Shown here one piece after another: positions 27,324 through 41,693 of a DNA stretch of 53,481 nucleotides. The DNA is from a virus. Its lineage: Duplodnaviria; Caudoviricetes. Each line of letters starts with the position of its first letter. Position 1 is the first letter of the stretch. Under the pieces are notes generated by a model. The model did not search any database. It had not been told where the DNA came from and worked only from the letters and a program-made list of their open reading frames with translations. Location: positions 1 through 53,481 of IMG/VR virus record IMGVR_UViG_3300044707_000344; one strand, 5' to 3'. Position numbers and translations under genes: made by a program.

Positions 27324-28181
27324 TCAGCCGATGGCAGGAAGCACATCGCACGGCGGAGGCTCGCGGTCCGTCATACGGCGGTCGAGGTACCATCGCTGCG
27401 TGATCCTCGGGCTGGAGTGGTCGAGCAGCTTCGTCGCATCGCCGCCGAGAGCTGCGTAGTGACTCGCCGCCGAGCGGCGCAGCTGGTGGAAGCCGCTGCC
27501 CCTGCCGTGGCCGAGGCCCGCACGGGCTACGATGTCCTTGTATTTCGACCACAGGTACGTCGGATGCTGCGGCCATTCAAGCAGCTTTCCGGTGCCGCAG
27601 GCCAGACGCACGGCTTCGCACGTCGCCTCGGATAGCTGATACACGCGGTCGCGCTTCCCGCCCTTCCGGTACTCGGCGCGCACCGACAGGAACGGCGGCG
27701 AGAAGTCCTCGGGCAGACACGATAGCACCGCGCCGATCCGTTCGGCCGTCTCCCACAGCACGCTCAGGAGTGCTGTGTACCAGATGCCAGCACGCACGGC
27801 CCCGACCGTGCCGCGTGTTGCGGCGGCGGCCCGCATGAGGGCTTGCAGCTGCTCGACTGACCATGCCGTCGGCACTCGCTCTGGCAGCGGAGCAGGAGGA
27901 ACGCATGGACGATCTTTTAGCACGCCGCGGTCGGCCGCGCACCGCCACAGCGACAACAACTGCGTGCGTTCTTTCTCGGCTGTGTACGGACTGCGGATCG
28001 ACGCTCGATGCTCAAGGTATCGGCTGATCGTCAGGTCTGTCAGGTCGTCGAGCGTCGGTATGTAGCCGAGCCACTTTGCAAACGCGCGGATCGTGCAACC
28101 GTACAGCCTCGTCGTGTTTGCCGAGCGTCCTCGCAGACGCAGCGGCCGGTAGAAGTCGTCAAAGAAGTTCTGAAGTGTCAT
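27324..28181 (-). CDS. int: Tyrosine recombinase/integrase
   Basis: Catalytic R (TAERIG), K (RKGGK), HQLRR, LDHSS, WY; 285 aa with no obvious arm-binding N-domain. Confidence 0.92.
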   Translation of the reverse strand: MTLQNFFDDFYRPLRLRGRSANTTRLYGCTIRAFAKWLGYIPTLDDLTDLTISRYLEHRASIRSPYTAEKERTQLLSLWRCAADRGVLKDRPCVPPAPLPERVPTAWSVEQLQALMRAAAATRGTVGAVRAGIWYTALLSVLWETAERIGAVLSCLPEDFSPPFLSVRAEYRKGGKRDRVYQLSEATCEAVRLACGTGKLLEWPQHPTYLWSKYKDIVARAGLGHGRGSGFHQLRRSAASHYAALGGDATKLLDHSSPRITQRWYLDRRMTDREPPPCDVLPAIG

Positions 28182-28272
28182 CGGCGGGCCTCTGTTGAGG
28201 TATAGGCCACGCCTCCGTGCTGGTGTTGTGCATCCTGCTTGAAGTAGTCGTAGCGGTTGTGCGGGCCTCCTA

Positions 28273-28291
28273 GAGTCCTGTCCCCGCCATT
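28273..28291 (+). other. Candidate attP core: tRNA 3'-end-like fragment
   Basis: GAGTCCTGTCCCCGCCA resembles the T-loop 3' half, T-stem and acceptor strand of a tRNA starting GGCGGGG; intergenic next to int. Confidence 0.5.
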
Positions 28292-28357
28292 TGACTCCCA
28301 GCCGTCCAACGTGGGCGGCTGGCTGTCTTTGTCACGAATACCACCGGTACGCGAACA

Positions 28358-28579
28358 ATGCAAAAGGCACCTGAGTGGATTTCAGTCCCCGTCGCCGCCG
28401 AACTCCTTGGCTGCACGGACGTTTGGGTCATCAAAATGATTGAACGTGGCGACTTAGAAGGGTTTCGGCTCAACGGCCGAGCCTGGGCCGTCAACAAAAA
28501 GAGCGTCGAGAAAAACTTGCAAGAGTACCTCAATCGCGACCCCGCCCTTTCTGGCAGAAAGAGATCGAAACTCGTGTAG
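28358..28579 (+). CDS. Excisionase-like (MerR-type/HTH_17) DNA-binding protein
   Basis: WISVPVAAELLGC...IERGDLEG...AWAV; divergent from int. Confidence 0.75.
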   Translation: MQKAPEWISVPVAAELLGCTDVWVIKMIERGDLEGFRLNGRAWAVNKKSVEKNLQEYLNRDPALSGRKRSKLV

Positions 28580-28613
28580 CGACTATTGACACGGAAGTGA
28601 ATAGAGCCTACGA

Positions 28614-28868
28614 ATGAGGGAGAACGGCGTGGAGGAGCAGCAAGTGGTCTATATTTCTGGTCAGGAAGCGGCGCGGCGGCTCGGCTGTGCGCCGATCACG
28701 GTGAGTCGCATCGCTCGGCAGCAAGGCATCGGCGTCATCGTCGAGGACGGGCGGCTGGCTGCGCTTGCCACGACGGATCTTCTGAGGATCAAGCCGTTCC
28801 TCCACCCGACCGCAGGCAATCCGCTCTGGATTGCCGCGAAGAAGAAGCGCAAGAAACGCGAAGCGTGA
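28614..28868 (+). CDS. HTH DNA-binding protein
   Basis: YISGQEAARRLGCAPITVSRIA; CTATTGACA upstream at 28583-28591. Confidence 0.65.
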   Translation: MRENGVEEQQVVYISGQEAARRLGCAPITVSRIARQQGIGVIVEDGRLAALATTDLLRIKPFLHPTAGNPLWIAAKKKRKKREA

Positions 28869-28870
28869 CG

Positions 28871-29020
28871 TTCCCAGCTATATAGGGAATTTCACACAGG
28901 GCAAAAACGCTTCGCGGCAGCACGTTTTCGCGGCACCCCCGCCTAAACGGTTGCGCCGCAATGGTTTAGACGGCCGCCAGAATTGCCGCGGAAACGTGTC
29001 CTGCCGCCCTTTGTTTTGGG
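28871..29020. repeat. 150-bp palindromic element, copy A (ori-like)
   Basis: Aligns without gaps to 37659-37808; internal inverted repeats. Confidence 0.8.
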
Positions 29021-29125
29021 GCAGACCCGGGGTACGTCGAACTTTTGACACGCCCCTGATTCGGCCAGCCCTATATAGAAAAGGGGCTTTCTCCCGCGAA
29101 ATACGCAGCAAAAAAAATTTTACCC

Positions 29126-29188
29126 CGCCCCTATTGACAGCCGATAAAGAATTGGTAGAATGAGGGGGTCAACGCGGCGGACCCCGCG
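29126..29188 (+). promoter_or_regulatory. Strong sigma70-type early promoter P1 plus leader hairpin
   Basis: TTGACA (29134)-N16-TAGAAT (29156), extended -10 TG, upstream A-tract; duplicated at 31253. Confidence 0.85.
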
Positions 29189-29214
29189 AGACGCCAACAA
29201 CGGAGAACACGACG

Positions 29215-29481
29215 ATGACCAATCGCAAAATCGAACGCATCGCAGCCACCGACGTGCAGGACGGCGACATCATCTTCACCTACGGCTATCGGTGCCGTGC
29301 CAGCGGGTGCCACGATTCGACGGCAGGCGACGGCCAGAAGGTTCGCACGTTCATCCTGACCAGCGAACCGGATGCGCTCAACGGCCAACGGCTGACCGGC
29401 GGCTTCAACGGTGGCCGGTACGGCGGCAACGCCCGCGCGACTTATGGCCGCGAGGTTGTGCCGCACACGGTCGAGGGCTGA
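29215..29481 (+). CDS. Early hypothetical protein
   Basis: ACGGAG RBS; first gene after P1. Confidence 0.75.
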   Translation: MTNRKIERIAATDVQDGDIIFTYGYRCRASGCHDSTAGDGQKVRTFILTSEPDALNGQRLTGGFNGGRYGGNARATYGREVVPHTVEG

Positions 29482-29492
29482 TTGTTCGGATA

Positions 29493-29530
29493 CCCGTGCT
29501 GCGGGCGTTCCGCAGCACGGGCGGGACTGA
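29493..29530 (+). promoter_or_regulatory. GCGTT-loop hairpin 1 followed by GGACTGA
   Basis: 12-bp perfect stem CCCGTGCTGCGG/CCGCAGCACGGG. Confidence 0.7.
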
Positions 29531-29555
29531 CGGGACTTCAACGGAGGACGGGACG

Positions 29556-29858
29556 ATGGCATTCAAGTTTCCCTGCGACATGACGGAGGACGAGCGGGAG
29601 CAGTATCACCGCCAGCGGTTCGAGGACGATCGTCGGGCCGGTGCGAAGAGGTTCGGTCTGAAGACCGACGAGGTGCTGTTCTACAACAGTGGCATCTGCT
29701 ACGACCGGATCGTCGTGACAACGATGCGGGCAGCGAGGAAGGTCGCCAAGGCGGTCAAAGGCGGCACGGTGAACGGCGGCTACCTCGACGGGATGCCGCT
29801 CGGCGGTATCAGCGAAGAGAAGCGTGAAGACAAAGTGGCCTACAGCGTGTACTGCTAA
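29556..29858 (+). CDS. Early hypothetical protein
   Basis: CGGAGGACGGGACGATG leader, identical to that of the next gene. Confidence 0.75.
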   Translation: MAFKFPCDMTEDEREQYHRQRFEDDRRAGAKRFGLKTDEVLFYNSGICYDRIVVTTMRAARKVAKAVKGGTVNGGYLDGMPLGGISEEKREDKVAYSVYC

Positions 29859-29864
29859 TCGGTG

Positions 29865-29913
29865 CCTGCCCCGGCGGGTGCGTTGCCCGCCGGGGCAGGA
29901 CTGATTGTTCGGA
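29865..29913 (+). promoter_or_regulatory. GCGTT-loop hairpin 2 followed by (GG)ACTGATTGTTCGGA
   Basis: 14-bp perfect stem plus a T-G pair closing the GCGTT loop. Confidence 0.7.
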
Positions 29914-29939
29914 AACCTAATCAACCGGAGGACGGGACG

Positions 29940-30497
29940 ATGAGTGCAAATCAGGTGTTGGCAGTATTTCACGCCGCGCTCAAGCGGCACGCGACAAACA
30001 GGGCAGGCGACTATCTAGCCGGGGCGTTTATCGCCGTCCCGCACCAGCTTCCGCCGACGTTGATGGACAACAGTTTCAGCCCGCCCGATGAGGAAGCAGG
30101 CGACCAGCACGTCCTGGGCGACCACGACTTTCACCGCTGCGTGTCGTTGGTCGACGGCCTGGACTATGCCGGGCATCAGGCCATCAAGGTGCAGGCTCTC
30201 GCCGCCCAAAGGCTGCGATTGGTACTAGGCTCGGATTGGCAGGAGCGCGTCCTGTGCGACCTCTATTCTGGGACCGCGATGAGCGACCCCGACTACCGGC
30301 GATTGGCAGAGCCGCTGCTGTGGGATTGCGTCTGGCCCGAGGTCGATGCTGACAGGTGCTTGACCGGTCGGCTTGTCGACGACAGCGAAGGCTACGCCAA
30401 CGTCATGAACGAGGCCATGATGAGTGAGGACGTAGCCAGGGCTGCCGGGCTGGTGATCGAGGACGGGTACGTTCACGACAGTCAGGAGGCGCAGTGA
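29940..30497 (+). CDS. Early hypothetical protein
   Basis: GGAGG RBS; 185 aa. Confidence 0.75.
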   Translation: MSANQVLAVFHAALKRHATNRAGDYLAGAFIAVPHQLPPTLMDNSFSPPDEEAGDQHVLGDHDFHRCVSLVDGLDYAGHQAIKVQALAAQRLRLVLGSDWQERVLCDLYSGTAMSDPDYRRLAEPLLWDCVWPEVDADRCLTGRLVDDSEGYANVMNEAMMSEDVARAAGLVIEDGYVHDSQEAQ

Positions 30498-30964
30498 TGC
30501 AGACCTTCCTCCCCTGTCCTTCGTTCAACGAGTCTGCCCGCTGTCTCGATTACCGCCGCCTTGGCAAGCAGCGTGTCGAGTGCAAGCAGATTCTGCTCGC
30601 GCTCGGCGTGCCGGTTGGCGAGCACCAACCGAAGCCGACGGCGTGGGCGAATCATCCGGCAGCGAGAATGTGGCGCGGCCACGAGTTCACGCTTGTCGAG
30701 TACGCCATCGAGGTGTGCCACGAGTGGATACGTCGTGGCTACAACGACACACTGCTGCCGCAGTTCAAAGAGTGCTGGTGGCAGATCGCGTGGAGCAGCG
30801 ACCGTCTGATGGCGTCTCCTAACTGGATCGGCTACGACGCGTTCCACGCCAGCCATCGCAGCAACCTGCTCCGCAAGGATCGCCAGCACTACGGGCGGTT
30901 CGGTTGGAAAGAGCCCGCCGACCTTGAGTACGTGTGGCCGGTCGAGAAGGAGGTGGCGGCATGA
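30497..30964 (+). CDS. MSMEG_6728-like / pyrimidine-dimer DNA glycosylase family protein
   Basis: MQTFLP...LDYRRLGKQRVE, NHPA.RMWRG, SHRSNLLRKD, YVWP. Confidence 0.85.
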   Translation: MQTFLPCPSFNESARCLDYRRLGKQRVECKQILLALGVPVGEHQPKPTAWANHPAARMWRGHEFTLVEYAIEVCHEWIRRGYNDTLLPQFKECWWQIAWSSDRLMASPNWIGYDAFHASHRSNLLRKDRQHYGRFGWKEPADLEYVWPVEKEVAA

Positions 30965-31206
30965 TCCGCGACCTTCTCCGCACCGTCTGCGTGATCGCCG
31001 CGATGGCGTCGGCCTGCTCGCTGCTCATCGAGACGCGGCTGCAACTTGCTTCGATCGACATCGCGCAGCGTCAGGCGGTGATGCCTATGGCGGGCCTGCC
31101 GACTGCGTACCCTCAGCCTGCACCGGCCTCGCCGCCGGGGCGGCTGCGGGTCTTCGGGCGGGCGGTTCTCGATCTGGCCGACGCGGGCCTGGGGGTGGTG
31201 CGGTGA
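30961..31206 (+). CDS. Small membrane-anchored protein
   Basis: GGAGG RBS, ATGA overlap, N-terminal hydrophobic segment. Confidence 0.65.
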   Translation: MIRDLLRTVCVIAAMASACSLLIETRLQLASIDIAQRQAVMPMAGLPTAYPQPAPASPPGRLRVFGRAVLDLADAGLGVVR

Positions 31207-31252
31207 AGACCCCCAGAAAACACCGGGAAAATAGGGGCAAAAAAATAATCCA

Positions 31253-31314
31253 CGCCCCTATTGACAGCCGATAAATATTGTGTATAATGAGGGCATGACG
31301 CGGCGGACCCCGCG
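31253..31314 (+). promoter_or_regulatory. Strong sigma70-type early promoter P2 plus leader hairpin
   Basis: TTGACA (31261)-N16-TATAAT (31283); 23-bp and 17-bp blocks identical to P1. Confidence 0.9.
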
Positions 31315-31341
31315 GCAGGACAACGAAACGGAGGACGAACG

Positions 31342-31554
31342 ATGTACGAGTTTGCGATCAAGACAAAAATCGGCTGGGTGGCTGGGATCAACCGGGCTCA
31401 CATGGTTGTGACTTGCACGACAGACATTCGGCTCGTGAAGACGTTCAAGACGCACAAGGCGGCGAACGCATTTCGCCGCAAGTACGAAAACACCGGAATG
31501 GGCCTGAACGCTGACGCCGAGGTGGTTCAAGTACCGTTCTTTTTTGGATGCTGA
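31342..31554 (+). CDS. Early hypothetical protein
   Basis: ACGGAGG RBS after P2. Confidence 0.7.
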   Translation: MYEFAIKTKIGWVAGINRAHMVVTCTTDIRLVKTFKTHKAANAFRRKYENTGMGLNADAEVVQVPFFFGC

Positions 31555-31594
31555 TTGTTCGGACTTCCAATCAAACCACAACGGAGACACGACG

Positions 31595-31795
31595 ATGACC
31601 CCTGCTAGCAAGATGGACTTCAAGAAGATTCAAGACGCGATCCGGATGCTCGGCCGAGACGATATGCGGACGCGGCTCACGACGAAGATCGGCGACAACC
31701 CCGCCAACGTGGACGCCACGCTGACGCTGATCGAGAACCTGTGTGCCGTGATCCGGCAGCAGGAGGGGCTGGTGGTCGAGGAGATCGAGTGCTGA
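31595..31795 (+). CDS. Early hypothetical protein
   Basis: ACGGAG RBS; leader similar to that of 29215. Confidence 0.7.
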   Translation: MTPASKMDFKKIQDAIRMLGRDDMRTRLTTKIGDNPANVDATLTLIENLCAVIRQQEGLVVEEIEC

Positions 31796-31802
31796 CTGAC
31801 TT

Positions 31803-31852
31803 GCGGCTCGGCCGCGTTGGCCGTGCCGCTGGACTGATTGTTTAGGTTCGGA
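31803..31852 (+). promoter_or_regulatory. GCGTT-loop hairpin 3 followed by GGACTGATTGTT
   Basis: GCGGC-T-CGGCC/GGCCG-T-GCCGC stem with GCGTT loop. Confidence 0.65.
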
Positions 31853-31873
31853 AACTAACGGAGGACTCTGACT

Positions 31874-32761
31874 ATGAACGAGATGATCACCTGCAACGTG
31901 GCCGACAAGGTTCGCTCGGCCTTCAATTTCAGCATCGATAAGTTCCCGCTGCGGGGACCGGAGAACATGGCCACGCCGTTCTACGGCCTGTTCCGGTCTG
32001 ATACCGGCGCGGCGGTCGGCTACGGATCGGTCAGCGACCGCTACACGCCGCACACGACTGACGACGTGCTGGCGTTGGTCGAAGCGGCCGGCGTGGCGTT
32101 CGACGGCGTGGCCGATGTGAAGTGTTATTTCGACCACGGCCACTACGTCACGGTCCAGCCGACGAAGGAGCAGCGGCTCGCGGTGTACGGCACGAGGGAC
32201 AACGTGTTTCCTCGCATCGTGATCGACGCCGGCTACGGCGGGCAGGCGTTCCGCGCCTCGCTCGGAATGTATCGCGACGCCTGCCGCAACATGATGATCC
32301 TGCGGCAAGCCGAGGGCACGAACGTGGCGATCCGCCATACGTCGAGCCTGCTGCTTCAGATGGACGAACTGATCGCGACGTTCGCTTCGCTGGAAGCGGG
32401 CTGGGGCAACCTCACGGCTGTCGTGCAGCAGATGCAGTCCCGCGAGGTTCGGATGGTCGAGTTTCTCAACGCGATCTACGGCGAGCCGAAGTCTGACGAA
32501 CGCCGCTCGGTCACGATGCACCGGCACCGCACAGAGGCCATCTTCCGCCGCCTGTCGTCGGAGCGGATGGTCACGGGCCGGGGCTCGCTCGGCTCCGACT
32601 TCGTGGTCACAGGCTGGGAAGCGTTCAACGCGGTCCAGGGATACGTCCAGCACGACAGCATCCGCCGCGGTCGGCCGACCGAGATGGAGCGGATCGTGCG
32701 GGCGCTGCACGACGGCAAGGTTGCACAGGCCGAAAGGCTTGCACTGACGATGGCGGTCTAG
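31874..32761 (+). CDS. DUF932-like domain protein
   Basis: RSDTG...VSDRY, RDACRNMM, IRHT, GWEAFNAV. Confidence 0.7.
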   Translation: MNEMITCNVADKVRSAFNFSIDKFPLRGPENMATPFYGLFRSDTGAAVGYGSVSDRYTPHTTDDVLALVEAAGVAFDGVADVKCYFDHGHYVTVQPTKEQRLAVYGTRDNVFPRIVIDAGYGGQAFRASLGMYRDACRNMMILRQAEGTNVAIRHTSSLLLQMDELIATFASLEAGWGNLTAVVQQMQSREVRMVEFLNAIYGEPKSDERRSVTMHRHRTEAIFRRLSSERMVTGRGSLGSDFVVTGWEAFNAVQGYVQHDSIRRGRPTEMERIVRALHDGKVAQAERLALTMAV

Positions 32762-32792
32762 TCCCCCGCCAGACGCCGCGTAAGCGGCAGTC

Positions 32793-32841
32793 GCCGTGGC
32801 GGGTGGGTTCCACCGTTCCCCCGCCCGCCACGGCTCTTTTC
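32793..32841 (+). terminator. Rho-independent terminator
   Basis: 15-bp stem GCCGTGGCGGGTGGG/CCCGCCCGCCACGGC followed by TCTTTT. Confidence 0.65.
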
Positions 32842-32874
32842 AAACAACGAACGGCAACCAAAGAAAGGGACAAC

Positions 32875-33180
32875 GTGGAACACATCAACAAGGGCACTCC
32901 GGTCTACAGCGCGTACATCGGAACGAACCCGGAGCTTCACTGGATCGACGAGGGAGTGATCTCGGAGATCGTCTTCAACGGCCAGCCGCTGGTGAGATGC
33001 GGCGACGCGCTAGTGCCGTATGGCAAGAAGTGGCGACTGACGAAGGCTGATGCTCGCCGCGACATTCACGCCGCGCTCATTCGGCACATCGGGAAGCTGC
33101 AGGCCGAGGCCGACAAGATGGCCGACGAGATCCTCCACGAAGACCTCGCTACGGAGGAGGTGACTCGTGGCGTGGCATGA
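32875..33180 (+). CDS. Hypothetical protein
   Basis: AAAGGGA RBS before GTG. Confidence 0.65.
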   Translation: MEHINKGTPVYSAYIGTNPELHWIDEGVISEIVFNGQPLVRCGDALVPYGKKWRLTKADARRDIHAALIRHIGKLQAEADKMADEILHEDLATEEVTRGVA

Positions 33181-34579: not shown

Positions 34580-35031
34580 GTATTGAATTGGAGATCGACG
34601 GCCAGCTTGCGGACAGCCAGCAGCTTTCAAAGCTGCTAGAGCGAGTGGCCGAGTTGCAGGCCGAGAAGGAGCGGATCGCTATCGAGGCGAAGAAGGTCAA
34701 CAAGGCACTTGACGAGGCCGAGCAGATGGCAGTCGAGGTGCTGGCGGCGTCGGGCCTCGACGGCGTGCGGGCGGCTGGAAAGTCGTGGTCCACTCGCGAG
34801 TTTTTCAGCGTTAGCGTGCCGAGCGAGAACCGCGAGGCAGTTGTCGAGGCCGCGGAGGAGGCCGGGCTTAGCGACTTGATTGCGGTCAACACGACCACGC
34901 TCAAGTCGTGGCTGGTCGAGAACCGCGGCGACGGCCAGCCAGCCGAGGCGGGTTTGGCCGCCGGCACCCCATTCGAGGGGCTGATTGATGAGTACCGGGA
35001 GGTGCGGCTGTCGCACCGAACGCTGGGTTGA
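34576..35031 (+). CDS. Replication-module coiled-coil protein
   Basis: ATGA-coupled to the helicase; VNTTTLKSW. Confidence 0.7.
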   Translation: MSIELEIDGQLADSQQLSKLLERVAELQAEKERIAIEAKKVNKALDEAEQMAVEVLAASGLDGVRAAGKSWSTREFFSVSVPSENREAVVEAAEEAGLSDLIAVNTTTLKSWLVENRGDGQPAEAGLAAGTPFEGLIDEYREVRLSHRTLG

Positions 35032-35086
35032 TTGTTTGGGTACGTTCTGTTTCTATTTCTTCACTTCACGAAAGGATTGGTGGCTG

Positions 35087-35876: not shown

Positions 35877-35919
35877 GCCCCCGCGCCTCGTGGAGACGCG
35901 GCGCGGGGGCTTTCCTTTC
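35877..35919 (+). terminator. Rho-independent terminator
   Basis: GCCCCCGCGCC/GGCGCGGGGGC stem followed by TTTCCTTT. Confidence 0.65.
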
Positions 35920-40635: not shown

Positions 40636-41391
40636 ATGAGCGTCGCCTCTCTCGCACGGAAACCGCAGGGCCACGGCGACCTGCTTGCGCCGGACGAGAA
40701 CCCGTTCAGCACGAACAAGGTCACAGGGCACTCGCTCAACTTCCCAATCGTGGGAACCTGCACTCCGACGATTGTGTGCAGCGACACGTGCTACTTCGCC
40801 AAGGGGCCGTCGACGTGGCCCGCGAGCCTCGCCAAGCAGCACCGGCTGCTGAACTCCCTGCGGGCCGATCCGCAGCGGCTCGCCGGTCGCATCGCTGGCT
40901 GGGCGACGCGGCTGCAACTCACGTTCGTTCGTTGGTGCGGCGGCGGCGACCTTGTGGCCGAAACGCCAGCGTGCATTGACGCCGTGGCCTGCCTGCTGCC
41001 GCACGTGCCGCAGTGGGTGGTCACACGGAAGCCGGAGGTCGCAGCAACCATCCGGCCGCACCCCAGCGTCTACGTCCACTTCTCGGTAGACGGGGCATCG
41101 TGGGCAAGGCTGGAGGAGTTTCGCAGCATCGTGCCCGACGGCTTGCAATGGTTCTGGTCGTACCAGTGCGACCGTGGAGAGGTGCCGCCAGCAGCGATAG
41201 CGCCGGTCGTGTTTCGTGACGGATATGACCTTGACGGATCAGCCCCCATCGCTCAGGATTGCCCACTCAACTTGAGCGATTCGATTGTTCGGGTATGCGA
41301 ATCTTGCCGTCGCTGCTTCAACGGTGACGCCGTAGCAAAGGCAAAGGAATGCCACGCGAGTCCAACATCGTCGCGTCGATTGTTCGGGTAG
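40636..41391 (+). CDS. Gp88-like Fe-S/radical-SAM-related protein
   Basis: TC-x5-C-x3-CY, RWCGGGD, TRK, FSVD, C-terminal CP...CESCRRC. Confidence 0.65.
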   Translation: MSVASLARKPQGHGDLLAPDENPFSTNKVTGHSLNFPIVGTCTPTIVCSDTCYFAKGPSTWPASLAKQHRLLNSLRADPQRLAGRIAGWATRLQLTFVRWCGGGDLVAETPACIDAVACLLPHVPQWVVTRKPEVAATIRPHPSVYVHFSVDGASWARLEEFRSIVPDGLQWFWSYQCDRGEVPPAAIAPVVFRDGYDLDGSAPIAQDCPLNLSDSIVRVCESCRRCFNGDAVAKAKECHASPTSSRRLFG

Positions 41392-41693
41392 CCGAATCAC
41401 TGGGCTGGAAGCCCATCAAGATTCATGGCGGGCCGTACCAGCTTGCGGGCTTGCCCGACCTCCTCTGCTTGCAACGCGGGTACGCCGTGTGGCTGGAGGT
41501 CAAGCAGCCAGGCAAGAAGCCAACAGAGATTCAGCGCCGGCGCATGAACGAACTAGAGACTCGGGGAGGGACTCCGTGTCACGTCGTCACCAGCAAGGAG
41601 GAAGCGTATGCGTGTCTACGAACTCATGCGGCGAGTTTCGGTTGGCCCGTTGACGATCCGCCTGTGGATCGAAGCCGACGACGGCCTGTGTGA
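41349..41693 (+). CDS. VRR-NUC domain nuclease
   Basis: GLPDL, WLEVKQPG, TEIQ. Confidence 0.9.
   Translation: MPRESNIVASIVRVAESLGWKPIKIHGGPYQLAGLPDLLCLQRGYAVWLEVKQPGKKPTEIQRRRMNELETRGGTPCHVVTSKEEAYACLRTHAASFGWPVDDPPVDRSRRRPV

Follow-up and report, generated by a model that had tools for sequence, protein, structure and literature searches.

Background

The promoter-early stem-loop (PeSL) cassettes of T4-type phages are intergenic repeats in which a stop codon is followed by an A/T-rich stretch, a GC-rich stem-loop and a Shine-Dalgarno sequence with a start codon (Arbiol et al. 2010, PMC2839356; see also PMC4122927). According to the description of the units in that paper, each carries a sigma-70 promoter and a stem-loop tested as a terminator, G-T pairs are allowed in the stems, the cassettes are concentrated among small accessory early genes, and recombination between copies explains insertions, deletions and replacements between close relatives (PMC2839356).

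Start-associated sequences (SAS) and extended SAS (ESAS) are described for Cluster K mycobacteriophages (Pope et al. 2011, PMC3203893). The SAS is a 13-bp motif, GGGATAGGAGCCC, which lies 3-7 bp before the start codon and overlaps the ribosome-binding site. In the account given there, this short asymmetric motif occurs in one orientation, only in the non-structural half of the genome, near the starts of genes of unrelated families; about half of the sites have an upstream inverted repeat at a short spacer, whose arms do not covary, and the authors favour DNA binding (PMC3203893). Stoperators are known from Cluster A mycobacteriophages, where a repressor blocks elongation. For the comparison of intercistronic elements in early mRNA, RegB/RNase E processing in T4 has been reviewed (PMC3014915).

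The present work concerns an early region of a phage genome from lake metagenomes. The initial annotation of this genome reported three hairpins with different stems, an invariant GCGTT loop and a downstream GGACTGA box, and regarded them as a candidate new cis-acting system. We analyzed the conservation, surroundings and possible function of these elements.

Results

Genome and its relatives

The window (the whole 53.5-kb stretch of DNA that was analyzed) is a complete temperate phage contig. Its DNA is present in 23 sequencing runs, all of them lake or freshwater metagenome DNA; there are no RNA runs among the matches listed. Profile scans found integrase and Xis/HTH genes, with HTH proteins encoded at 28358-28579 and 28614-28868, in keeping with a temperate lifestyle, and the integrase matches ordinary phage integrase families in PHROGs. 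GenBank phages include no relative: the sole match covers 117 nt at 72.7% inside a glycosylase gene, and positions 1-25000 have no match there. A search with the DUF932 protein led to one distant MAG contig. The cassette described below is conserved across dozens of lake metagenome contigs. The phages that carry it are a clade of uncultivated freshwater temperate phages with GC-rich, siphovirus-like genomes.

Hairpins with a common loop

All three reported stem-loops were found, each with the GCGTT loop (Table 1). Each lies between an upstream stop codon and the Shine-Dalgarno sequence and ATG of the next gene (starts at 29556, 29940 and 31874), i.e., before the ribosome-binding site, as had been proposed. 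The stems of hairpins 2 and 3 begin 6-7 nt past the stop codon; among relatives the stop-to-hairpin spacing is 3-7 nt. Stem stability is very high (-21 to -36 kcal/mol). The annotated absence of a U-tract is correct in that no T run directly follows any of the three stems, and hairpins 1 and 3 are not called intrinsic terminators when a U-rich tract 0-2 nt past a GC-rich stem is sought.

Table 1. Positions of the elements of the early region in the window
Feature	Position	Strand	Description
Early promoter P1	29134..29161	+	TTGACA, 16 nt, TAGAAT; TG extension; 11/12 consensus matches
Intergenic box copy 1 (CTGATTGTTCGGATA)	29478..29492	+	TGA is the stop of gene 29215-29481; directly 5' of hairpin 1
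Hairpin 1, family A	29493-29521	+	12 perfect pairs, loop GCGTT
Leader after hairpin 1	29522..29558	+	CGGGAC repeats, Shine-Dalgarno AACGGAGGAC, ATG of gene 29556-29858
Hairpin 2, family C	29865-29899	+	14 bp plus T.G (U.G) pair, loop GCGTT
Intergenic box copy 2 (CTGATTGTTCGGAA)	29901..29914	+	immediately 3' of hairpin 2, with the second GGACTGA as its 5' edge
Early promoter P2	31261..31288	+	TTGACA, 16 nt, TATAAT; 12/12 consensus matches
Intergenic box copy 3 (CTGATTGTTCGGACT)	31551..31565	+	no hairpin; TGA is the stop of gene 31342-31554
Hairpin 3, family B	31803-31829	+	5+5 bp around T-T mismatch, loop GCGTT
Intergenic box copy 4 (CTGATTGTTTAGGTT)	31834..31848	+	immediately 3' of hairpin 3, with the third GGACTGA as its 5' edge
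Terminator-like hairpin, U-rich tail (CUCUUUUC)	32793..32846	+	closely follows the DUF932 gene, in line with the early operon
Intergenic box copy 5 (TTGATTGTTTGGGTA)	35028..35042	+	no hairpin
Hairpin, GGAG tetraloop, tail UUUCCUUUC	35877..35919	+	upstream of the PrimPol gene

The number of hairpins sharing a loop was compared with its expectation in shuffled sequence. Under a strict definition (5-nt loop, energy of at most -18.5 kcal/mol, 500 dinucleotide shuffles) the + strand has seven hairpins, three of them with GCGTT; the shuffled sequences have 1.7 hairpins on average, and neither a loop-sharing pair nor a GCGTT loop appeared in any of the 500. Under a lax definition (at least 9 pairs, one mismatch allowed, 200 shuffles) there are 90 hairpins, GTGCA is likewise common to three, and at least three hairpins share a loop in 16/200 shuffles. 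The sharing is thus beyond chance in the strict test but not significant in the lax one.

No Rfam family was matched at or above its gathering threshold anywhere in the window. At E up to 10 the region 28200-32000 gave three weak matches; the one that overlaps a hairpin (hairpin 3) is CC0196 at 31795-31830, with 15.3 bits against a gathering score of 35. The exact 16-mer GGACTGATTGTTCGGA has one chance match in IMG/VR, in a coding region. A covariance model designated R2 found, below E 1e-6, only the three hairpins in the genome, the next-best match being the reverse strand of hairpin 1 (E 0.0036).

Hairpin families and covariation

The three stems are indeed unrelated to each other. A covariance model of family B gives hairpin 3 a score of 50.8 bits and hairpin 2 only 10.4 bits (E 3.4), and hairpin 1 is not listed at E up to 10; these scores rule out one family for all three. 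The hairpins fall into three sequence families (A, B and C), all conserved in related contigs, and a loop centred on CGT is common to three, possibly five, unrelated stem families. Contrary to what had been supposed, the stems are not free to vary: each family has a conserved one, and that of family A is identical in 12 IMG/VR stretches. Family A variants have two compensatory pairs plus the loop ACGTT, or U.G wobbles, or the loop GTGTT, and both loop variants are shared with family B. Family C was found in L008, L014, L105, L130, L144 and L150, always with GCGTT and with three distinct stems. The loop of a further family, D, drifts (CGG, CAG, CTG).

Family B is represented by 35 distinct variants, a sample biased toward close relatives since an exact 17-nt downstream match was required. 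The loop had been called invariant; it is identical in the three hairpins of the window but varies in their homologues, GCGTT being present in 18/35 family-B variants. The loop consensus is N-Y-G-T-N (N-Y-G-U-N in RNA): G3 and T4 are fixed in 35/35, and position 1, changed in 11 variants, is among the most variable columns. Compensatory changes are present in the stems, with double-sided changes at 6 of the 11 pairs (21 cells), and the covariation score was reached by none of 500 shuffles. Nine cells are G.U or U.G, which would be A.C mismatches on the opposite strand. The covariation and the wobble pairs possible on the + strand only point to folding of the sense strand. Judging from these sequence comparisons, the hairpins belong to the conserved cis elements of the early region and fold in the sense strand. 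That the G-U core of the loop is conserved suggests that some factor makes contact with it.

A pseudoknot between the loop CGUU and an AACG upstream of the Shine-Dalgarno sequence was considered and rejected: L002 and L003 keep GCGTT but have ACCGG or UACGG, and in L009 the loop becomes ACGTA with AACG retained (judged by eye).

The intergenic box

GGACTGA has three + strand copies (29524, 29898 and 31831), each no more than 2 nt from a hairpin end, as annotated. The word is not enriched in the window (4 on both strands against 7.3 expected), and its position alone is non-random. It is no independent box: the copies that follow hairpins 2 and 3 form the 5' end of the box CTGATTGTT, which occurs also alone at 31551 and upstream of hairpin 1 at 29478. 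The first GGACTGA is part of the leader 29522..29558, and the word that follows family-A hairpins varies among relatives.

The box GATTGTTYRG has seven copies in the window, all on the + strand, against 0.25 expected. It is A/T-rich and often contains the upstream stop codon, also where there is no hairpin. Of 206 distinct box contexts, 115 have the stop codon of an ORF of at least 50 codons no more than 12 nt away, and in 88 of these 115 it is the TGA of the box itself; an adjacent strong hairpin is absent in 121 of 171 contexts. The region of box copy 3 has no stable fold (z -0.26), and box copy 4 is followed by the Shine-Dalgarno sequence and ATG of the DUF932 gene (31874-32761). In the relative L004 the canonical box is missing at the junctions read; the copy before the DUF932 gene is ATTGGTT, and the family-B hairpin is kept. 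Conservation of the box far above that of ordinary RNase E-type sites suggests a specific binder. A literature search for the box word returned primer lists only, and a search for similar elements in phages brought up nothing nearer than the T4 review.

Readthrough of the stop codon into the TGA of the box was rejected, because the two are in frame at hairpin 3 and out of frame at hairpins 1 and 2, and because the stop-to-hairpin spacing varies among relatives. The box shares AUUGUU with the SELEX consensus of the T4 RegA operator, aaAAUUGUUAUGUAA (PMC3014915), but RegA sites overlap the AUG. No RegA-like family was matched, and we treat the likeness as a coincidence.

Promoters and terminator-like hairpins

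P1 is followed by a conserved leader with a 5-bp hairpin at its 5' end, and cross-matches between the two regions show the P2 promoter-leader unit to be a diverged repeat of P1. The only promoter-like sites in 27.5-36.5 kb are those at 29134 and 31261, and neither adjoins a GCGTT hairpin. An ECF-type promoter with CGT as the -10 element was rejected, as there is no GGAAC-like -35 at the right distance. U-rich tails follow four other hairpins of the genome (9647, 32793, 35877 and 40568), and relatives carry homologues of the hairpin at 32793, with T tracts.

Cassette and gene exchange

The order of the unit is stop codon, box, optional hairpin (A, B or C), short spacer, AACGGAGGAC leader and ATG. 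At least 15 different genes have such a unit in front of them. Almost every early junction has a box, and hairpins may stand in successive junctions (29493 and 29865 in the window; 1432 and 1790 in L008). Cassette A, of about 80 nt, is 88-99% identical to those of L003, L008, L009 and L014, with non-homologous flanks; it is found upstream of 15 different N-termini in 22 distinct sense-strand contexts.

The suggestion that early genes are shuffled was borne out, for homology breakpoints fall on the units, which mark the boundaries of exchanged genes. In recombinant contigs from four lake runs 29541 is joined to 29926 within a 17-nt identity between the leaders 29522..29558 and 29926-29942, the site of a natural deletion joint. 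Further natural joints connect 31207 to 31580 and 31314 to 31798; several joints have short sides (20 nt) and come from single contigs aligned at 88% likeness; related phages or repeats could therefore account for them. The points at which recombinant contigs part from the window (29479, 29559, 31550 and 31876) are in boxes, leaders and ATGs. In the closest relative of the window, the first gene downstream of P1 is not conserved. The spacer cassette apparently helps to shuffle small early genes.

Discussion

Proposed role as punctuation and recombination linkers

With moderate confidence we regard the hairpins as mRNA punctuation, acting in processing, stability or attenuation, that doubles as recombination linkers in the manner of the T4 PeSLs. 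They would be optional modules of a conserved intergenic cassette between small genes of the early operon, which runs rightward. Within the polycistronic early transcript they would act as non-terminating punctuation: they could protect 3' or 5' ends created by cleavage in the adjoining A/U-rich box or, alternatively, pause or attenuate transcription, and the relative expression of neighbouring genes would be set in this way. At the DNA level the repeated box and leader would serve as short homologous-recombination linkers through which early genes are added, deleted and exchanged, the role that PeSL cassettes have in T4-type phages.

The cassettes share with PeSLs the order of elements, the G-T pairs, the concentration among small accessory early genes, and the position at breakpoints of gain, loss and replacement, for which inter-copy recombination is the explanation in both cases. 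In contrast to PeSLs, only two units here have promoters (P1 and P2), and the hairpin units have neither promoter nor U tail. The hairpins belong to a few sequence families with a common loop core, and the carriers are GC-rich temperate siphovirus-like phages rather than T4-like ones.

Like SAS, the box is a short asymmetric motif in one orientation that is confined to the non-structural half of the genome, lies near gene starts and accompanies genes of unrelated families. It lies on or after the upstream stop codon, unlike SAS with their overlap of the ribosome-binding site, and the hairpin arms, unlike those of ESAS, covary and use G.U pairs. Neither the box GATTGTTYRG nor the AACGGAGGAC leader corresponds to the SAS motif, and there is no sequence similarity between SAS/ESAS and the present elements.

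The early RNase III sites of T7 and bacterial REP elements likewise lie between cistrons, near an A/U-rich or specific cleavage motif. RNase III substrates are roughly 20 bp long, and the present stems (11-15 bp) are shorter. Copies in host genomes were not found: the family-A core has no match in 185,579 species genomes.

Besides the conservation of the box beyond that of RNase E-type sites, two observations count against this reading. A terminating ribosome would melt the stem base of hairpins 2 and 3, which is awkward for a pure 3'-end protector. A loop under purely structural constraint would be expected to drift like that of family D; its G-U core is instead fixed, a sign of specific recognition, for which a nut-like model accounts better. 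The proposed new cis-acting system holds as far as the elements are real and conserved, but they resemble known phage regulatory cassettes and are not wholly new.

Possible antitermination or two-part recognition

A site similar to lambda nut, with GAUUGUUYGG as boxA and the pentaloop hairpin as boxB, would bind a protein that lets polymerase pass the hairpins at 32793-32846 and 35877-35919. We consider this possible but unlikely. The likeness to lambda lies in the pairing of a conserved linear element with a hairpin 0-10 nt away whose 5-nt loop is constrained, both located after the early promoters of a temperate phage; here the G-U core is common to unrelated stems, and the hairpins stand downstream of two strong early promoters and upstream of terminator-like hairpins that transcription of later genes must pass. 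The anatomy is different. The lambda boxB has a short stem (about 5 bp) and a GNRA-like pentaloop (GAAAA or GAAGA), and there is one nut site per operon; the present stems have 11-15 bp, the loop is GCGUU (consensus N-Y-G-U-N), boxes are at nearly every early junction, and hairpins occupy successive junctions. The likeness to lambda boxB noted in the annotation therefore fails on stem length and loop class. The boxA word (GCUCUUUA-like), sought as GCTCTT[TA]A, has no match on either strand of the window, and the looser [CT]GCTCTT has none on the + strand in 28-33 kb. Two further points speak against such a site: the first gene downstream of P1 is not conserved in the closest relative, and L004 keeps a family-B hairpin with no canonical box at the junctions read. 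No antiterminator was named among 30 proteins by Pfam, 10 of which were also compared with PHROGs, but this is weak evidence because N proteins are small and diverse.

More broadly, GAUUGUUYGG and the adjacent N-Y-G-U-N hairpin might together be an RNA recognition module in two parts, new as a sequence class and read by a protein, a proposal which we put forward only tentatively and think improbable. A phage or host protein would then control the fate of the early transcript, either by processive antitermination that carries polymerase past the in-line terminators (32793 and 35877) or by sequence-specific endonucleolytic processing. Such a module would be portable, so that any gene dropped between two copies would come under its control.

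Improbable readings: termination, DNA operators and recombination sites

It is rather improbable that the hairpins are leaky intrinsic terminators or attenuators, in which the T-rich box is a poor U tract (families B and C) and which would stop a fraction of polymerases and so produce an expression gradient along the operon, in the way that PeSL stem-loops do. A simple scan does call hairpin 2 terminator-like (ACTGATTGTT has 5 T in 8 bases), the stems are very stable, and PeSL stem-loops terminated in a lacZ reporter, according to the experiments described (PMC2839356). Against this, family A is followed by CGGGACTGACGGGAC with no T run, the T-rich stretch of families B and C begins 5-8 nt past the stem, and the proper U tails of other hairpins in the genome suggest that the host polymerase probably needs one.

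Protein sites in duplex DNA, with the box as a stoperator-like operator whose repressor blocks elongation and with the inverted repeats bound in the manner proposed for ESAS, are very improbable. The box does match the distribution given for stoperators and SAS/ESAS in their descriptions (PMC3203893, PMC9283540), being an asymmetric word of 10-13 nt that always has the same orientation to transcription and lies in short gaps between genes of the non-structural region. Since the hairpin arms are entirely different from family to family, one dimeric DNA binder cannot recognize all of them. The compensatory changes and the G.U pairs possible on one strand only speak for folded single strands. In L5 the operator shares the stoperator motif; here no copy of the box is at P1 or P2.

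The loosely integron-like shuffling proposed in the annotation, with the hairpins as attC-like folded ssDNA sites at which the neighbouring tyrosine recombinase captures and shuffles gene cassettes, hardly deserves belief and found no support: the genes between cassettes change by gain, loss and exchange, the opposite strand carries an integrase gene at a distance of 1.3 kb, and the + strand wobble pairs would also fit + strand single-stranded DNA, but the RYYYAAC...GTTRRRY pair is absent from 28-33 kb (the lack of attC-type R boxes had been recognized correctly), the near-perfect stems have no conserved extrahelical bases, most junctions have the box without a hairpin, the integrase is of an ordinary phage type, and breakpoints occur in the box, in the leader, at the ATG and in the promoter leader, with no single fixed crossover, as expected of homologous rather than site-specific exchange within shared runs such as the 17 nt. 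The likeness to N4 hairpin promoters, which have a 5-7 bp stem and a 3-nt loop and are read by a virion-borne giant RNA polymerase, is dismissed by stems of 11-15 bp, loops of 5 nt and a longest likely gene of 666 aa.

Conclusions

Almost no regulatory elements have been described for temperate phages of uncultivated freshwater bacteria, and the clade studied here offers a grammar of box, hairpin and leader. The cassette is a handle for the annotation of early operons and gene starts, and the constrained loop core is a concrete target in the search for a binding factor. Should the nut-like or the nuclease reading be true, a new RNA-protein recognition pair would be defined; otherwise the elements would be well-documented but ordinary phage intergenic punctuation. 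Beyond the T4-type phages, the cassette would also provide a second and independent case in which regulatory cassettes double as recombination linkers for accessory genes.

Hairpins with a GCGTT loop

The window is an entire record, one contig of 53,481 bases with 63% G+C. It carries genes for the large terminase, an HK97-type capsid protein, and a tyrosine integrase, as well as two small HTH or Xis-like genes that run rightward, and its gene content shows it to be a temperate tailed phage. A rightward early/replication operon encodes a pyrimidine-dimer glycosylase, DUF932, an SNF2 helicase, PrimPol, and a UvrD helicase. The glycosylase gene (Pfam Pyr_excise, E 1e-19) has a UV-repair function, which could matter to a surface-lake phage. 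No relatives were found in the GenBank phage collection. Many are present among IMG/VR and metagenome contigs, and 23 lake or freshwater DNA runs contain DNA near-identical to the window.

The three intergenic stem-loops described in the initial annotation (hairpins 1 to 3) are present exactly as described. Hairpins 1 and 2 are among only four in the genome with at least 12 perfect pairs. With a 5-nt loop and an energy of -18.5 kcal/mol or lower required, three of the seven + strand hairpins have the GCGTT loop; under this strict definition none of 500 dinucleotide shuffles contained two strong hairpins of the same loop, and GCGTT occurred in none. A lax shuffle test was not significant (at least three hairpins of the same loop in 16 of 200 shuffles). 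A match to a known family had been named as a possible objection, and the window gave none in Rfam at gathering thresholds; with E up to 10 allowed, 28200-32000 gave just three matches, all below threshold. The hairpin observation is real and non-random.

Hairpin families

The hairpins had been regarded as one system defined by its loop. They form instead three families, each with a stem that is conserved in relatives. In family A (hairpin 1) a 23-nt core is identical across 12 IMG/VR stretches. The loop in 22 distinct sense-strand contexts is GCGTT (18), ACGTT (three), or GTGTT (one). Two compensatory stem pairs accompany the ACGTT form, and further copies have U.G wobbles or a G-C to A-U change with compensation.

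Family B (hairpin 3) was gathered by the 17 nt downstream of the hairpin, with the loop disregarded. The search gave 61 distinct contexts, namely 36 with the hairpin and 25 chance matches in unrelated A/T-rich DNA. Exclusion of one hairpin that did not fit the register (locus L139) left 35 aligned variants. Their loops are GCGTT (18), ACGTT (4), GTGTT (3), GTGTG, TCGTT, and TCGTC (2 each), and ACGTA, TTGTT, TTGTC, and GCGTG (once each). The loop is therefore not invariant: position 1 varies in 11 variants and position 2 is C or T, and only positions 3 and 4 (G, T) are constant in all 35. The covariation that the initial annotation proposed to look for was found in the stem, where both sides change in 6 of 11 pairs (21 cells), a score reached by none of 500 shuffles. 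Nine G.U or U.G cells would be mismatches if read on the opposite strand.

Family C (hairpin 2) is known from seven loci with three different stems, and the loop is GCGTT in every one. A family-B model recognized neither hairpin 1 nor hairpin 2. A mixed hairpin model found no copy in the genome beyond the three hairpins, and 73 matches in 46 related loci. The same junctions also have hairpins of other families, with loops CGG, CAG, or CTG in family D; family E hairpins at early junctions have loops GCTGT or ACAGT. CGT-centred loops occur on two further stems, at 3749 in L004 and at 2765 in L010 (both related contig loci).

The box and the repeating unit

Four copies of CTGATTGTT are found in the window. 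The more general box GATTGTTYRG has 7 copies versus 0.25 expected, all on the + strand. Two of these fall within a coding segment that is duplicated, and they probably do not belong to the cassette system. The segment has the peptide SIVRV in two copies 95 nt apart, where an ORF with Pfam GP88 meets the next ORF. It is conserved in relatives and resembles a partial duplication of the downstream gene at its 5' end.

GGACTGA, previously proposed as a box, does adjoin all three hairpins within 2 nt downstream, but it is not a box of its own: after hairpins 2 and 3 it is GGA plus the beginning of the GATTGTTYRG box, and so part of a larger pattern. Its overall count is not enriched (4 observed versus 7.3 expected), and the word after family-A hairpins varies by relative (GGACTGA, GGACGGT, GGACGAT, GGATCGA, GGACTGG). 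Both the invariant loop and the GGACTGA box had been claimed too strongly.

A box also lies upstream of hairpin 1 and supplies, with its TGA, the stop codon of gene 29215-29481; the box at 31551 has no hairpin. In the fetched loci a long-ORF stop codon lies within 12 nt of the box in 115 of 206 distinct contexts (in 88 of the 115 it is the box's own TGA), and no strong hairpin stands beside the box in 121 of 171 contexts, both totals containing some chance matches in unrelated loci. From the box to a conserved Shine-Dalgarno leader and ATG there are 30-49 nt without a hairpin and 70-89 nt with one. Thus the repeating unit is stop, box, optional hairpin, leader, start.

In the related locus L004 (3600-6010, DUF932 84% identical) the intergenic spacers are CA-rich and lack the canonical box. 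A family-B hairpin is nevertheless kept before DUF932; its inner stem is new, its loop is ACGTT, and the box there is the variant ATTGGTT. Hairpin and box can thus evolve separately.

Portability of the cassettes

Compared with the closest relative (L002), homology ends after the ATG at 29215 and resumes at 29921; in between, only the 80-nt cassette A, the family-A hairpin unit, matches (94%). This cassette is 88-99% identical to L003, L008, L009, and L014, with neither flank homologous, and the genes shared with these four loci are 66-85% identical. Downstream of cassette A we found 15 different N-termini. Mosaic joints and loose ends were read from contigs of four lake runs against positions 28900-32900 of the window. 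The joints and loose ends coincide with box, leader, and ATG, a pattern that would be expected of homologous exchange between repeated intergenic modules, as opposed to a site-specific crossover.

Positions of features in the window and in related loci
Feature	Position	Details
Tyrosine integrase	27324-28181	leftward
Conserved small proteins	28358-28579, 28614-28868, 31595-31795
Pyr_excise glycosylase gene	30497-30964
Hairpin 1	29493-29521	family A
Hairpin 2	29865-29899	family C
Hairpin 3	31803-31829	family B
CTGATTGTT copies	29478, 29901, 31551, 31834
Box-like words in coding segment	41283-41292, 41378-41387
ORFs at this segment	40636-41391, 41349-41693	GP88 in the former
P1 unit	29088-29219	early promoter
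P2 unit	31237-31349	early promoter
CTATATAG copies	28878-28885, 29071-29078
Hairpins with U-rich tails	9647, 32793, 35877, 40568
PrimPol-upstream hairpin	35877-35910
Its homologues	L003 10273, L004 10256, L006 9973, L007 10256, L009 10258
Joint	29541 to 29926	17 shared leader letters, side 49
Joint	31207 to 31580	side 40
Joint	31314 to 31798	side 33
Weaker joint	29208 to 31581	side 20
Weaker joint	29559 to 30536	side 20
Loose ends	29479, 29559, 31550, 31876

Neighboring elements

The P1 and P2 units are a diverged repeat. In each, an A-tract, TTGACA, and a -10 element come before a leader, which opens with a 5-bp hairpin (CGCGG, loop CGGACC, CCGCG) and closes with the common Shine-Dalgarno leader. 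Because of these common parts the promoter unit also looks like a portable cassette. The palindrome CTATATAG bounds, with its two copies, a 190-nt non-coding stretch upstream of P1, and the copies may be operator half-sites.

The divergent region that separates the integrase from the first HTH gene contains an 11-bp hairpin at 28298-28322 (loop ACG, one U.G pair valid on the + strand only), with conserved CCCCGCCATT upstream of it. Hairpins with very different stems are kept at the equivalent position in three relatives (L003 2307, L007 1155, L016 4457). This element may be regulatory or related to attP.

The hairpin upstream of PrimPol has homologues in five related loci; the GGAG tetraloop and T-rich tail are kept and stem changes are compensatory. 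A genuine, conserved terminator or attenuator may well be located here, at the early/replication gene boundary.

Discussion

The functionally closest known systems are the promoter-early stem-loop (PeSL) cassettes of T4-type phages (PMC2839356) and the start-associated sequences (SAS/ESAS) of Cluster K mycobacteriophages (PMC3203893). Our hairpin units differ from PeSL in having neither promoter nor terminator tail, and from ESAS in that their stems covary. The cassette is a member of neither, nor of any Rfam family. A literature search, with supplementary files outside its scope, found no published account of the motif. We regard the system as an undescribed phage intergenic cassette, of a kind that is not categorically new.

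The GCGTT hairpins fold in the sense strand and have no U tails, in a genome where four other hairpins carry U-rich tails, so ordinary terminators are unlikely. That the G-U of the loop is fixed on unrelated stems speaks most strongly for a specific binder. It leaves a low probability for a nut-like model of box and hairpin, which is weakened by the copy number of the elements, the stem length, the absent boxA word, and the finding that none of 30 proteins scanned against Pfam, 10 of them also against PHROGs, was recognizable as N-like. Reading the hairpins as attC-like or N4-promoter-like, or hairpins and boxes as duplex operators, has a low probability.

We prefer to regard the cassettes as putative mRNA punctuation and recombination linkers, the RNA-level steps being inferred. 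The A/U-rich box would be a point of cleavage or recognition on the mRNA. The hairpin, which ends 21-29 nt upstream of the Shine-Dalgarno sequence and so does not occlude it, may protect an RNA end or pause transcription and in this way set the relative expression of neighboring genes. The same conserved modules may double as linkers for recombination.
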